Shown: positions 5,398-45,152 of the stretch, piece by piece
Layout: every line of letters starts with the position of its first letter
How positions within the stretch are numbered: the first letter of the stretch is position 1
From: Octopus vulgaris
Lineage: Eukaryota
NCBI GenBank assembly: GCA_951406725.2
Contig: OX597825.1
Span: 8,928,001-8,992,000 of the forward strand
Direction: 5' to 3'
Length of the DNA: 64,000 nt
Translations under genes and position numbers: made by a program
The notes under the pieces: generated by a model
Database searches by the model: none
What the model was told of the DNA's origin: nothing
Seen by the model: only the letters and a program-made list of their open reading frames with translations

Positions 5398-8300
5398 TTT
5401 AGGTTAGGCCTTTGCTAATATTTACTATAGATACAATCAAGAAACATTTGTCACTCTCACATGATGACTCTCGACATTCCTCATGGATCTAATGTGCCAC
5501 TTCTGCTACCATCAACTTTAAACTGTTCAACATATTTAAATATCTTCCTCGATTACAAAAGTTGCCAGCAAACTCATCAACTCGAAACAAGTGTCCAGTC
5601 AGAAAGTACCACCGGTGCTACCCTAACATCCCAGCCAATAGCAATGACGTTATCTTTTCCCCTACATTCGTATGATTATTTCCATAACCATATCGTATTC
5701 ATGCTCTCTCTGTATTTCCGTCTTTCTCACTATAGTATGACCCATTTACAAGAGTGTAAATCGTTTTGAGTATCATTCTCTAGCTCTTCCTCACAATATA
5801 TCAGTGTCACTAACATCTAGAAGTCTTTGCTAACCATCAATGTGAAAGTCGTAAACTCACATCTGCATCCCTCTCAATTTCAATACTTTCCCTATGTTCA
5901 ATACCGTTGCACTCACGTGGGCGGGCGCCTAAACTCACGCTCACGACGCTTGTAAGTCAATTAGAAGAGTTAATAATAGAGGACTGTGTTCTCATCAGTA
6001 AGAAATCAATATTTATCAAAGGAATTGTGGCTATTGAAATAGAAAAATAATTTAATAACAATAAGAAATAGTAGTTTTAAGAGGGGAAAGGAGAATGATA
6101 ACGGATAAAACGCCAATCATTCCGTCCTTTTGTATGCTTTTGACTCTACGCTTTCCTGTTTGGGTAACGAAATGTACAAATATTAGTAAATTGAACGTTT
6201 TCAAACTGCGTCCATTTTTTTTTTTACTGAAGCAGAGACAATGTTGCAGGGTTTTCAGACGTCAAGTAATAACATTAAAACTTCATATACTCGTTTCGTA
6301 TTTGATATCAACTGCTCTATGTTGATATCAATGTATGTTAATGTATGGCAGTGCGTTGTGTATGCGCGCGTTTAATATAGAAACATGGTGAGGGATTTCA
6401 TTGGTTTAAAATAATACGAAAAACAACTTTGTATATGAGTCGCTATATTTTATGCATAAATTTTTTGCGATCGTGTCTCTACATAAGGGAAGAAGTTTAG
6501 AATAAATATATGTTTCTAGTGTAAGTTGCCCACACATATACTAACACTCATTTAGACTTATGCAAATGCATATATGTAGCGCGAATTGTAGTTAAAGATA
6601 TGGAAAGAATATATCCCAACATACGTTTTTTATACGGAAACCTGTGAGAGAACACAAGTGCAGTAAGAAAAACATCTACACCAAAAAGATATGTTGAAAT
6701 CTCACAAATAATTTATCACCCCACCCCCTCAGTTTGTATTTACGACATGTTGTACTATTTGTCTGTGATACGTCTGCACCATTCGTATCTCCTTTACCAC
6801 TAGGTGATCTGTCGCACATGATACGGTTTGACGTACCGATCCTCGATTCGAACCTCCGACGTTCCGATAATCATTTGGATTGTTCAATCAATAGACCTCA
6901 TCCATTCACTGAAAACTGATTTTCAATCGGTTCACCGATTTCAGGTGTTATTTTAATAAATGATTGTTTCTTTGTATAACAATCTTAGAGTTCCATGTCA
7001 GCTATCTGTGTGTTCATATACATATTGCATAGTTTTATTTGTTAACAATTTGGTAAATAATAAACAGGTTTTTATTTTCATTTCAGCGAATCTAGACATT
7101 TTTAAAGCACGGATCTATATAATTACGAAGAAAATCCTTCGTAAATAATATCATAAACACTTAGAAAAACTGTGATATATAAATGTAAAGCAAGAAAATT
7201 CCAATCCTATTTGTTTCATGAACGTAGTAAGCTCCAAATGGCTTAACAAAAATTCGTTTGCTTTCGGTTACTTCACTTCCCAGAAAGTTATATAAAATAT
7301 ATTCCTTAAGGTTAGAGTTGTTGGACACCTTATACGTTTTACTTATATTAATTTCAAATTGCTTACAATTACCCTCCACCACCATCAACATATACACACT
7401 AACATAACTGAACTTAGTTATTTTAATCTTAAACTTGCTGTAGTAGGGAATATAATATGAAAAACATCGCATATTTTCTGACTGCAAAGTTTCTTTCAGC
7501 TAATATTACTGAAAGCCCACATATGTATCCTATATACACAAAGTCATATAGAAAATAATTCAGCTGAATTGCAAAGATCATTGCAGAAAAATATTCTCAT
7601 AGCGATCAGGACAATTGATTGGAAAAAAATTGACGGTGAAATTTGAGCAGAGAAACTTTCTAGAAGAAATTGAATAAAATTATGTATTAACGTAACAATT
7701 TGCTGTCTTCAATATCTTCTATACATTGATACTTGCAGTAACTGATTTTCCAGTCACTTATATAATGTTATATTATTCTTGAGAGAGAAACTAGATATCT
7801 AGGCAAACTAGTTCAGTGCAGAAAGATCGGGTCATTGTTTCACTGAAAGAAAGTCTGAATAGATTGTTTTGATTGAGTGGTTTACTTTGAAATCAAAGGC
7901 GTTCTTCGTTGTTTTGAGGACGGTCGAAAGTCTTTGTGCTGTTTAGTGAAAGGATTGACATAGTGTTGAACTTTTTCTGTATAATTCAATGAGATACTTG
8001 ATAACGGATAGAAGGTCAATGGTGAATAACAATAAAGCATGAAGACTATTTGACTCCCCGTTGACTGAGCCCTGAATTAATCATATGATGTATGAATAGA
8101 AATTCGCAGATTATAACTACAACTGAACTTGCTATATATACTGACAAAATTCTGGCTATTGTGAGAGAACGGTGCGTGCAATTCTAATCAGGCAAAAGCT
8201 GGTTTAAATAATTTTAAACAATTGAATTTCAGATAACAGACAATACAATCAACAGCAGCTAACAAAGACAAACATGGGAGAAACTGAAACATGGAAAATA

Positions 8301-8661
8301 GATTCAACGATGAAGCGATTTTGACATGGACGTGAAGTAGGTTTGAATAGATTTAAGACAAGATCGATTAGGAAAAGCAGAAGTATTGTGTGAGTTATCC
8401 AATAATATCACTTGACAAGTTAAATCATTTTTGCTGTTAATAATCGATGTGGTAATGATCCATCGATGGCATTTCAAACCGTATTATGCAGTTGAGCAGG
8501 ATATGTTCTACAATGTCCTGGCAGAAATAAAATTCTATTTAAATACCATATTTAAGGATATTATGTAAATCTTCTCCTTGTATGATTAACGTTCACATTG
8601 CCATTTCTAAACTAATGAGTTAATGAGGTGTTGATACTTTTATATAATATATATATATATA

Positions 8662-9144
8662 TAACTAATGTTGGATAAAATTTATAAATTTAACCCTTAA
8701 AGGTATTTTTTGATATCTTGGCCATTGATGAAGTTTTTTTCCAGAAAAATTTTTATCATACATTAGTTATGAATTGAATAGTGTTCACTTCCGGATTCTC
8801 TCACTCTGTGAAAGTTTCTAGTTCGAATCACACGTGTCTCGAGATTTGCCGAAGATTTTCTCTATTTTGGATATATTTGGGGTACTTAGGTCTGCTCAGG
8901 ACTCAGTGCTTGCTTTTTCCATGGGTATGAGTAAGTATTTCACTTATATCTCGCGTATTTGCCGCTGAAGAGGGGAAGATTTCTTACAAATTAACCCCGA
9001 AATTGGACCAATACGGTAATAACGAATTTTTTAGAAATTTCTATCGGTTTGTTTTGAGACGCATAAATTATAATGGTGATTGACAATTTTTGGGGTTTTT
9101 TCGGCATATTTGGCATTAGAATTTTTGTTTTGCCCTTATCTTGT

Positions 9145-9148
<4 letters not shown>
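8662..9148 (+). mobile_element. ~490 bp hammerhead-carrying non-coding element (retrozyme/PLE pLTR-like) between two (TA)n tracts
   Basis: Bounded by TA arrays at ~8641-8661 and 9149+; contains an intact hammerhead; no credible ORF. Confidence 0.65.
8959..9019 (+). ncRNA. Type I hammerhead ribozyme
   Basis: Stem I TTGCCG/CGGTAA; core CTGAAGA 8965-8971; stem II GGGG/CCCC; GAAA 8999-9002; stem III TTGG-a-CCAA; AUA cleavage triplet ending 9013. Confidence 0.85.
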
Positions 9149-9184
<36 letters not shown>

Positions 9185-9201
9185 CATATGCAAATACACA
9201 T

Positions 9202-9274
<73 letters not shown>

Positions 9275-20561: not shown

Positions 20562-21324
20562 AGGGAAGATGGACCATATACTCAGAAGGGAAAGAAAAAA
20601 CATGTATTTGTAATGTATTAAGTCATAACGTATCTCATATGTTCAGCATGTAAATAAGATAAACTTCGGAGACAAATATTAAAAGAGAGTTAAGTTTGTA
20701 TATAAGGGATAACTTGTATAAACCGAAAATTAGACAAAGATACGAGAATTGCTTTTAAAAATTAGGAGAGTAAAAAATAAGTAGGAGAGTTTTTAAAAAA
20801 TGAAATTGCACATATAATGCATAACTTAGAAGAATCACTGTGAATGTGCCAACAGACGAGCTTGAGACATGGTCGCCCTCACGCACTTCTCATGAGGGAT
20901 TCCGGAAGGGGCTTTGGGAGACCAATGCAGAGAAGCTTCCGAAAAAATAAAACAGATTTTAGGAGTGACAAGAAAAATTATTAGCGATATCTGAGAAAGG
21001 AATTTTTGTATTCCGAAATACTATTATATCAGACTATGGATAATTTAATTATAACAGTTATTATAGTCCATCGTTGTTATTTTAGTGCTTTGTTGTGCCA
21101 TTCAAGACACATTATATTTTAAAAACTAGCTTTAAGATAGAAATTATTATGCAACATAATGACTGAATTTGCTGTCCTTGGTGCAATGCAAATATGAAGC
21201 AAACTTAGGTGTCATCTGATATGATAACTCTGACATATGGATGACATGCCGAAACTGACCACCACTTATTCGTGGTACTGTGCATCGATAGTGATTTTAT
21301 TATTGCACAAATTACATTCAAGTG

Positions 21325-41619: not shown

Positions 41620-43245
41620 CCAAGTGAAATACCATGACGAAAACACAAAGCAAAGTTCATCGAAGCAAATCTCAGACAAAAAATATCCGATTTTTAACGC
41701 CAGGACAACAAACACTGGAATGAGAATTAAAAAACAAGAGGAAACATAGCTGAAGCTACTGAACGTATAGACTCTAAAAGAATTAATTTATCTAAATGAG
41801 GTTAAGACAATGATGAACTCCAACGTTCAGGGAACGTGTTGAAATTCACGCCTATGCCGGCAGTTAACCACGAAGAATTGGAAGAGCATATCCAAAAATT
41901 CAGTCGGTGAATTCTTTGCTAATAAAAGTAATGAAACTGATGAATCCCTAGTAAGGAATAAATTAAAGTTCACCCCAACTAAATGAAGAAATGACTATGT
42001 CGACCAATGCATTGTTATCCTGTCTAAATTTCCCCTGAGACACAATACTAATGTTAGGCCAGATATTAACAAATCAGGGAGATCTGCACTTTAACGCCTA
42101 CGAAATGATAACACAATAATCATTAAACCAGTAGATAAATGAGTGGCAGTCATAATGTATGCCGAATACTACAGGAATTTAGTTGAGGACACAATATTCT
42201 ATTGGGAAATGCATTCAAATATAGACCACCACATTATGAAGAAGATCAATAAACTGGTTTCAAAAACATAATTCCTTTGCTAATAATGAAAGAGACGACA
42301 CCACCAGTTGCGAACCAAAACACTGCAACTTCTATGGCTTATCAAAACTACACTTCAAAAGGAATTCAGCATGCAGTAAAGGAAAAAGAAAAGGAGTACA
42401 TAAAATTAATATACCCTTACACATATTATGGCGGGTCCAGAATGCCCTACCCACTGTCTAAGCAATCTTATTGATATTATTTTGAAGCTATTATGCAATC
42501 ACATCAGAGGGGACTTCAAATTCCTACCCAACCTTCTCAAAATAACGGAATCGAATTCCCTTTTTCTTTGTTTTGATGTGCTTGGGTTTGATGGTTTAGG
42601 AATATAGGCGATTAAATACTAGGTAGAAAAACATAAAGTACTGATTCCTAGTAGATTCAGCGTACATCATATATTAGACGCAGTCAAACATTTACTTGAA
42701 AATGACATTAATTTTCAATGGAAAGAATTACATCCAAATTAGAGGCAAAACAATGGGAACGAAATTTGCACCTGTTTATGCGAATTCCGTAATGGGATGA
42801 TTAGAAACAGACCTTTATCAAACAGTAGAGGAAAACTACGGCACTTAATTTAAAAGGTATATTGACGATACTTGGAAGAGATTCTTTGAGGATAGCTTCA
42901 AAATCTGGACAAAATTTTTAGATACTCTGGAAGAATTTTAAAATTTACACCCAAACCTTCAATTTACAAAGAAAATGTGTACCATTTGTAGACATAACAC
43001 CATCACCACTGATATATACTATAAACACAGACACGCATCAATCGTTGGACATCAATTCGTGCCATCCAACACATGCAAAACGCAATATCCCACACTGCCT
43101 AAACAGAAATATTTGTGCCATTTTGGAAGATATGAATACCTGAGTCAACCGCCTAACAGAACTCAAAGACTTTCTACTTAAAGAAAAATACCCCACTCCA
43201 CTTAAAGATAATGGTATACAGCGTGCTATGGAAATATCAACTCAT
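41615..43245 (+). mobile_element. Penelope-like retroelement reverse transcriptase pseudogene
   Basis: Colinear PLE motifs across stops/frameshifts: INLS..LKFTPMP, IIIKPVDK, FYGLSKLH, IMAGPECPTHCLSNLIDIILK, CFDV, QIRGKTMGTKFAPVYANSVMG, WKRFFEDSFKIW, LHPNLQFT, TDIYYK, SCHP..KRNIP. Begins at a (TA)n tract; no GIY-YIG domain seen. Confidence 0.9.
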
Positions 43246-43904
43246 CAGTATACAATACTTAAATCAGCGATGATCAAAATATCGCCGCGCGTTCAGTTAT
43301 ATTTCAACGCCCGTTTACACTTAATCGCGCACAAACATTCGCTTCATATCCTGCGAGCAGTCCTCCTTATTGACGATTTGAATTATACAGTTTCATATCG
43401 ATACTCAATGCACATGGCTGTGTTTCATCAGTTTCTCCAAGCGGAGGTCTTTTCATGATTTACAATAAACAAACGTAATAGAAAACAACTGTATAGAACC
43501 ATATATCATATATATATGTATTTGTAAGAAACTCCAGACTCTTAGATTGGAGCACTTGTGTGTTATCTATACAATCAAAGACCGTTATAGACATATCTGA
43601 TTTTTGTTAATGTAACAGATGTAACTATGAGACAGCTCTATCTAGAAATACACACGGATGTATATTCTAATATCTGTAAAAATAGATTATGTTGTTTGGT
43701 GTATATTTAAGTGCTAAGCTGCTGAGATGTTTTAAATTAACCCTGCTTTATTTTATCACTTGTTATCGTAGCATTATCTTTCATAAACGAATCGCATAAA
43801 TTATTGTATCTGTTTTAATATTTGAATTAATCTACGTTAGAGTGTGATGCAATGTGTCAGAGGTGGAGAGACGGGTTATAGCAAGTGAAACAGAATGCAA
43901 AAGC

Positions 43905-45152
43905 AGGAGAGGAGGAGGAGGAGGAGGAGGAGGAGGAGGAGGAGGAGGAAGATGGGTAGACAAAGAGGGAAAGAAGAAGAAGGAGAAGAAGAAGGAGAAG
44001 AAGAAGAGAAGAAGAAGATGACGAAGAAGAAGAAGGGGTAGAAGAAGAAGAAGAAGAAGAAGAAGAAGGAGAAGAAGGAGAAGAAGGAGAAGAAGAAGAA
44101 GACGAAGAAGAAGGGTAGAAGAAGAAGAAGAATACAAGAAGAAGAAGAAGATGAAGGAGAAGAAGAAGGAGAAGAAGAAGGAAAAGAAGAAGGAAAAGAA
44201 GAAGAAGAAGAAGAAGAAGAAGGAGAAGAAGAAGGAGAAGGAGAAGAAGGAGAAGAAGAAGAAGGAGAAGAAGAAGGAGAAGAAGAAGGAGAAGAAGAAG
44301 AAGAAGAAGAAGAAGAAGAAGGAGAAGAAGAAGGAGAAGAAGAAGAAGGAGAAGAAGAAGGAGAAGAAGAAGGAGAAGGAGAAGAAGAAGAAGAAGAAGG
44401 AGAAGGAGAAGAAGAAGAAGAAGAAGAAGAAGAAGGAGAAGGAGAAGAAGAAGAAGAAGAAGAAGAAGATGAAGGGTAGAAGAAGTAGAAGGGTACAAGA
44501 AGAAGAAGAAGGAGAAGAAGGAGAAGAAGAAGAAGAAGAAGAAGAAGGAGAAGAAGGAGAAGAAGAAGAAGACGAAGAAGAAGGGTAGAAGAAGTAGAAG
44601 GGTACAAGAAGAAGAAGAAGAAGAAGGAGAAGAAGAAGGAGAAGAAGAAGGAAAAGAAGAAGGAAAAGAAGAAGAAGAAGAAGAAGAAGAAGGAGAAGAA
44701 GAAGAAGAAGAAGAAGAAGAAGGGTAGAAGAAGTAGAAGGGTACAAGAAGAAGAAGGAGAAGAAGGAGAAGAAGAAGAAGAAGAAGAAGAAGAAGAAGGA
44801 TAAGGAGAAGGAGAAGAAGAAGAAGTAGAAAACAGAAGAAGGAGAAGGGGAAGAAGGAGGAGGAGAAGAAGGAGGAGGAGAAGAAGAAGGAGGAGGGGGA
44901 GAAGGAGCAGGAGGAGGGGAGAAGAAGAAGAAGGAGATGATGATGAGGATGATGATGATGATGAGGAGGAGGAGGAGGAGGATAAAGAAGAAGGAGAAGA
45001 AGTAGAAAACAAAAGAAGGAGGAGGAGATGAGGAGGAGGAGGAGCAGGAGGGGGATGATGATGATGATGATAAAGAAGAAGAAGAAGAAGAAGAAGAAGA
45101 AGAAGAAGAAGAAGAAGAAGAAGAAGAAAAAGAAGAAGAAGAAGAAGAAGGG
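43905..45152. repeat. 1.25 kb polypurine (GAA/GGA/GAT)n compound repeat
   Basis: Almost pure purine top strand with recurrent gaagggtagaagaagtagaagggtacaa punctuation. Confidence 0.97.

Follow-up and report, generated by a model that had tools for sequence, protein, structure and literature searches.

The 64,000-nt stretch of the Octopus vulgaris genome analysed here (contig OX597825.1, hereafter the window, whose own numbering is used throughout) carries at 8959-9019 a string that resembles a hammerhead ribozyme and whose stem III is a palindrome centred on a single nucleotide. This raises the questions of whether the site is a genuine ribozyme motif, what kind of element carries it, and how a stem III of this type could fold. 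In the reading that we consider probable, it is a conserved hammerhead within a non-coding non-LTR retrozyme, likely a non-autonomous passenger of Penelope-like elements (PLEs), with a ribozyme predicted to be inactive as a monomer and active as a double hammerhead.

All parts of a type I hammerhead were found at 8959-9019 on the + strand (Table 1), as a preliminary description of this DNA had stated for the core and the three stems: CUGANGA, GAAA and UH are joined by three stems and the ends of the motif lie in stem I. The AUA cleavage triplet, presented there as a less common one, is a natural triplet of the eggplant latent viroid (+) hammerhead, though it was the slowest of AUC, GUC, GUA and AUA with purified RNA of that viroid (PMC1636495). 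The bare core pattern is not rare in the window (10 matches vs 8.4 expected), while a descriptor requiring three stems retains 8959-9019 as its single site and finds none in 60 shuffled windows. Other core-like strings of the window, at 1301-1329, 20991, 43372-43431 and 55879, were set aside as lacking convincing stems. The hammerhead-like string at 20991-21035 displays an A8 core variant with weak stems and is probably a chance occurrence or a decayed copy.

Table 1. Features of the hammerhead motif and of the repeat copy that carries it (positions in the window).
Feature	Position	Strand	Evidence or remark
Hammerhead ribozyme motif, type I	8959..9019	+	Core, stems, covariation; cut predicted between 9013 and 9014
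Stem I	TTGCCG 8959-8964 / CGGTAA 9014-9019	+	One G-U
Stem I extension	8954-8956/9022-9024	+	Lies past a 2x2 internal loop; overall span 8954..9024
Core CTGAAGA	8965-8971	+	
Stem II, 4 bp	GGGG 8972-8975 / CCCC 8995-8998	+	
Inner helix of stem II, 5 bp	8978-8982/8988-8992	+	Past an AA/AA internal loop
Core GAAA	8999-9002	+	
Palindromic stem III, ATTGG-A-CCAAT	9002-9012	+	1-nt centre; predicted swap region of the double hammerhead
Cleavage triplet ATA (AUA)	9011-9013	+	Cut predicted after 9013
Full 470-nt unit, non-coding dispersed repeat (retrozyme, subfamily A)	8680..9149	+	DNA search, unit limits, head-to-tail junction
CCATGGGTATGAGTAAGTAT	8919..8938	+	Lies upstream of the ribozyme; identical in A and B; resembles an ATG with a 5' splice site
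Tail between S1 and S2	8680..8770	+	A long hairpin at its end; first 62 nt near-identical between A and B
Inverted second arm, 27 nt, ending at S2	8660..8686	-	Reverse complement matches the S2 end of the family
Left (TA)n target tract	8643..8662	.	
Right (TA)n target tract, after the S1 end	9149..9271	.	

Across 125 instances of the motif, in which intact copies are over-represented because the loci were partly chosen by motif, the core varies mainly at N7. Covariation was assessed on 30 of these instances, hand-picked to span the variant types and drawn from related copies. In this set, 95.0% of cells form standard pairs (24-44% in slid controls) and the cell-based pairing measures exceed those of all 500 shuffles; the count of covarying pairs was reached by 136 of the 500. 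Nine of the 22 pairs have changed on both sides and are spread over all three stems, most of the two-sided changes being the single split between subfamilies A and B (see below) counted many times. Stem I with its extension went from G-C to A-U at two pairs and shows G-U/A-U and C-G/U-G at two others, half of the 8 pairs of stem II and its inner helix changed on both sides, and stem III went from U-A to C-G in subfamily B. The innermost G-C pair of stem III, which can form only in the dimer, never varies and so gives no covariation evidence. Related and hand-picked as they are, these copies thus combine compensatory stem changes with a core invariant except at N7, the pattern of a type I hammerhead, and the covariation suggests that selection preserved stems I-III in those lineages that multiplied. 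The lack of conservation among paralogues, which the preliminary description had named, together with a failure to cleave, as grounds for abandoning the motif, is not what was found. A chance look-alike, or a SINE or satellite in which the motif is incidental, would be in keeping with the weak folding score of the 61-mer, whose stability is not unusual (z -0.81), and with the lack of any match to the Rfam hammerhead models at the gathering score or at E<=10, which is a test against a library rather than of a defining property. Such an origin is nevertheless largely refuted already by the compensatory changes in all three stems and by the 0 of 60 shuffles, and we regard it as extremely improbable.

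While right about the motif, the preliminary description had missed the surrounding element, a dispersed repeat with a unit of 470 nt. A DNA search in the 2.8-Gb, microsatellite-rich genome gave 41 near-full-length matches of 91-100% identity, the best 40 of 2,947 candidates being scored, at 91-94%. Exact matches to the 3' half of the hammerhead numbered 446 genome-wide (reversed control 0) and 1,525 when the pattern included subfamily degeneracy (reversed control 3), and those to a 27-mer of the tail 1,306 (reversed control 0); the unit has well over a thousand genomic copies. The longest ATG frame in the unit is of 35-48 aa and none exceeds 48 aa. In 22 natural units, the distance from cut to cut is 433-489 nt. 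The window copy belongs to subfamily A, to which subfamily B, first met nested in a PLE, is ca. 77% identical with a unit of 488 nt; older intermediate subfamilies occur among the loci selected by the tail 27-mer. A small non-coding unit, arranged head to tail and bearing one type I hammerhead, corresponds to a non-LTR retrozyme. Among the joints listed, none links by splicing the GT at 8924 or 8931 with the AG that the next unit has at 8702. In contigs of presumed RNA runs, the unit is covered whereas the unique flank at 8150-8633 is absent, but since trace DNA or introns could show so many-copy a repeat, this coverage gives no evidence on expression; assembled contigs moreover cannot reveal a cut end, a strand or a circle.

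The architecture of the copies was surveyed in 93 distinct loci and in 30 further loci selected by the tail. Across the 93 loci, copies are 5'-truncated, partly tandem and often two-armed, with both 3' ends pointing outward into (TA)n. These 3' ends are of two fixed types: S1, which is the end of the unit, and S2, located ca. 95 nt into the next unit (near 8770). When both ends of a two-armed locus could be classed, which leaves 12 more such loci aside, S1 was combined with S2 in 32 of 34 cases (binomial p 3e-8), the two exceptions resembling adjacent separate insertions. A single matching hammerhead is present in 66 of the 83 loci on one contig (C1); the others have two, inverted in 15 and in direct orientation in 2. 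Among the 40 best dimer matches, the longest array comprises ca. 2.6 units and there were no long satellite arrays. Truncated 5' ends, incomplete tandems, arms in inverted orientation, a (TA)n target and a tail at one end are traits of a PLE-mobilised sequence; as both copy ends lie in (TA)n, any target-site duplication is unreadable. The window copy obeys the pairing rule, with a 27-nt inverted arm at S2 and one full unit at S1, the short arm (8660-8686) being joined to the main one via a 7-nt overlap. In the PAc element of Anolis, two internal starts of reverse transcription define the tail (PMC11167929) and, by analogy, the PLE protein likely reads the octopus tail.

The same footprints could be left if the units were 5'-truncated pLTRs of an autonomous PLE, derived from a linear, uncut tandem RNA, and if the ribozyme were marginal to mobility. 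Every insertion footprint is indeed PLE-like (PMC8557442), ribozyme activity is dispensable in vitro for PAc, in which ribozyme mutants did not impair insertion (PMC11167929), and our genome searches scored only the best 40-150 candidates. Yet the sequence upstream of unit position 1 was always the unit's own 3' end and never an ORF, both in the 93 loci and in the 30 tail-selected ones, the latter giving no tblastn match to a PLE protein. We thus consider a pLTR origin to be quite improbable and keep to that of a non-autonomous passenger.

The genome offers many potential partners, that is PLEs having an RT, a CxxC-type linker and, at the C-terminus, GIY-YIG, which are Neptune/Nematis-like according to the description in PMC8557442. 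A parent was sought by RT DNA, by GIY-YIG family, in ten long PLE loci and by the conserved tail 27-mer; in the 52 PLE loci covered by this non-exhaustive survey (ca. nine families), no terminal repeat was homologous to the unit. One young family (L153-L162, see for instance G000:C17:42762000-42768000) has RT + GIY-YIG frames of 781 aa, 17 of which were counted by eye among 150 scored matches. It ends in (TA)n at two alternative 3' ends ca. 35 nt apart, contains CCAAT/TGACGTC repeats within its terminal repeat and displays, ca. 75 nt before its end, a hammerhead-like motif with a U3-A8 core (TTGATAA...GAAACATGTT). Over ca. 16 nt, the S2 end of this family is similar to that of the unit, a weak lead that points to the family as a possible partner.

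Several candidates were rejected during this search. The 781-aa family and the L062-L072 family were discarded as parents, their terminal repeats being unrelated, and so was the unit itself as an autonomous PLE, there being no ORF for RT + GIY-YIG between terminal repeats. Candidate pLTRs at L064, L134/L154, L161 and L175 turned out to be nested insertions; units there lie inside or right beside PLE copies, which is consistent with shared (TA)n or AT-rich targets. In a second PLE family (L066-L070, L126), a minimal hammerhead with a 6-nt stem III palindrome (AGTACT) is found downstream of the ORF. The window itself contains a decayed fragment of a Penelope-like reverse transcriptase (42620-43260), 73-75% identical to a younger family and, at 43971-45150, a 1.2-kb purine-rich (AAG)n array with a strong strand skew.

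How the palindrome could serve as stem III was addressed by nearest-neighbour folding, which ignores tertiary contacts that could rescue the monomer. According to the preliminary description, the 1-nt centre prevents full closure in a monomer; this holds for the innermost pair, G9006-C9008, the only one that is impossible, while a 4-bp stem III made of an A-U and three pairs around a GAC triloop can still form, at 1.1 kcal/mol above the minimum-energy fold. In the latter, the catalytic CUGA (8965-8968) is paired with the 5' half of the palindrome. The same masking is seen in the RNAalifold consensus of all 30 rows, and the pairing probability of the monomer stem III is 0.00-0.14 in all seven variants folded. 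Two strands of the window motif, in contrast, are predicted to form an exact double hammerhead at -35.3 vs 2 x -12.4 kcal/mol. The swapped helix has a probability of 0.95-0.98 in 5 of 7 variants when two strands are folded, with 0.24 and 0.00 for two B variants. Natural tandems, in which two motifs could be parsed at 6 of the 9 loci tried, gave 0.95, 0.95, 0.87, 0.78, 0.41 and 0.00 for the swapped stem III. A double-hammerhead fold is thus predicted for subfamily A and for 4-5 of the 6 natural tandems, with short B dimers predicted to stay masked. Folding as a dimer, suggested from the outset, is therefore supported by prediction, though the window copy has no partner in cis: with one hammerhead, and with direct tandems as rare as 2 of 83 loci on C1, it could dimerise only in trans and is likely a dead-end product.

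The history of the stem III centre was traced on a tree of 100 copies, built with the centre masked and with a midpoint root not independently fixed. Four changes between 1-nt and 2-nt centres are needed, of which at least two are forced by starred branches, and no bootstrap tree has just one. Under the midpoint root, copies with a 2-nt centre are basal in both A and B, which suggests that the 1-nt centre arose twice from 2-nt ancestors. Since a run of G easily loses one of them, tolerance rather than selection may account for it. In one older variant (L019:2614-2691), stem III is a perfect 12-nt palindrome, ATCGGATCCGAT.

These data also bear on whether the hammerhead might instead cut as a monomer, by means of a 4-bp stem III with a 3-nt loop and of tertiary contacts between stems I and II, the palindrome being incidental to the hairpin. 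The small energy gap given above would allow it, and four pairs exceed the 1-2 bp that stem III has in many animal type I hammerheads, among which those of coral and mussel cleave as monomers at 0.8 and 0.1 per min (PMC7229834); the 2-nt centre of older copies would moreover make a tetraloop hairpin. However, the monomer stem III is rarely populated in any of the predictions (at most 0.14), the consensus fold masks the core, and the two lineages that prevail in the sample both had their centre reduced to 1 nt. Monomer cleavage therefore appears unlikely, and cleavage by the double hammerhead is retained as the working model.

The copies further inform on the template of reverse transcription. 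Their 5' ends are not piled at the cut site, with 3 of 105 and 0 of 51 arms lying within 5 nt of it (2.5 and 1.1 expected), and 23 arms (21 + 2) run through two cut sites, indicating a template that was uncut or re-ligated. In the tandem at L119, the two units have the same changes that break the ribozyme, a G at H17 and a mismatch in stem I, which implies that copying passed through two units of a non-cleaving template. Copies from one locus are sisters on the tree in 11 of 17 pairs (7 starred), including 5 of 6 direct tandems, which is the pattern expected from copying one molecule. A single-circle origin was also looked for by other means, with 11 compound loci left out, and was indistinguishable from background: pairwise distances did not separate copies within loci from those between loci, and the A>G excess that fixed A-to-I edits would leave was not seen among shared rare variants. 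Circular units fold more stably than shuffles in the four tested of the 22, with z of -4.3 to -5.2 in three and of -14.6 in one that has an internal inversion. Taken with the template and sister-copy results, these predicted folds make an RNA circle plausible.

Overall, the life cycle that we propose starts from the closed head-to-tail unit, devoid of ORF and found in (TA)n at well over a thousand places, whose stems would be maintained by selection wherever it spreads. A transcript of a single unit is predicted to keep its core masked, the catalytic CUGA being paired with the 5' half of the palindrome. Where two units meet, on one tandem transcript or on two separate ones, the palindromes would swap partners and each core would cut the AUA site of the other unit, releasing unit-length RNA. 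As in published retrozymes, the released RNA may then be ligated into a circle, which would stay uncut because it holds one hammerhead. From the anatomy of the copies and from PMC11167929, we propose that a PLE supplies an RT/GIY-YIG protein, which nicks the two strands of a (TA)n target, and that reverse transcription starts at S1 for one strand and at S2 for the other; the ribozyme would be read through on an uncut or circular template, yielding truncated, partly tandem and tail-out inverted copies.

More tentatively, and with appreciable doubt, the masking may constitute a built-in switch between monomer and dimer, the core being hidden in a single unit or circle and freed only in a tandem, that was tightened independently in two sister lineages as their stem III centre went from two bases to one. 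Were this true, the genome would offer a dated natural series of ribozymes in transition to obligate dimers, and would answer how animal retrozyme circles avoid cutting themselves, a question left open by PMC7229834. Work at the bench would be most worthwhile on the masked-core switch and on the repeated shortening of the stem III centre, and natural variants are at hand for it (1-nt vs 2-nt centre, A vs B palindrome, tandems 470 nt apart) that suit a test of dimer function and also bear on how retrozyme circles remain uncut. Likewise, the strict rule of one arm at S1 and one at S2 provides a genomic readout of a PLE protein priming both target strands.

The class to which this hammerhead belongs is already known, a palindromic stem III of dimer type being the norm for hammerheads of PLE-linked repeats (PMC4209133, PMC6765202), and the value of the octopus family is rather that of a test system. 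No description of this family was found in the papers searched, supplements, Dfam and Repbase being outside that search, and the main text of a 2026 repeat annotation of Octopus vulgaris mentions no ribozyme, hammerhead or retrozyme. Small tandem repeats with type I hammerheads that are expressed as circles are known as non-LTR retrozymes (PMC7229834), and these have been argued to be derivatives of PLEs (bioRxiv 10.64898/2026.07.22.740005, whose accessible text mentions neither octopus nor molluscs). Against the dimer model, the preprint saw no cleavage with 8 of 9 Xenopus retrozyme dimers.

Compared with PLE hammerheads, the octopus motif shares with those of pLTRs the type I order, the palindromic loop 3 positions and the predicted double hammerhead (PMC4209133). 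In the minimal PLE hammerheads of the same study, helix III is reduced or missing, helix II is long and a bulge follows position 9, whereas the octopus motif has canonical stems of 6 bp and 4 bp and a long palindrome, lacks the bulge and shows no ORF between its copies. At the level of insertion, PAc (PMC11167929) and Neptune/Naiad copies (PMC8557442) resemble the octopus ones in the AT-rich target, the tail at one end and the inverted 5' arms and, under the model proposed above, in the extension of both strands and the two internal RT start sites; the octopus element differs in being non-autonomous and in having a tail of ca. 90-100 nt vs 30-40 nt. The AUA triplet is shared with the eggplant latent viroid (+) hammerhead (PMC1636495) which, unlike the octopus motif, is that of a viroid, of type III and stable as a monomer.

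The closest resemblance is with animal non-LTR retrozymes (PMC7229834; bioRxiv 10.64898/2026.07.22.740005), which also consist of a non-coding unit with one type I hammerhead and a GC content below 50%, lack LTR, PBS and PPT, occur as head-to-tail copies and coexist with PLEs in the same genome. The dimer-dependent cleavage of axolotl retrozyme families has its counterpart here in a folding prediction. Differences are found in the unit length, 433-489 nt vs 170-400 nt in invertebrate retrozymes (PMC7229834) though within the 51-972 of Li et al., in stem III arms of 5 nt vs 1-2 nt, and in the predominance of dispersed truncated monomers and inverted pairs. The octopus family has the sequence-level features of a retrozyme, and we expect that it works like one.
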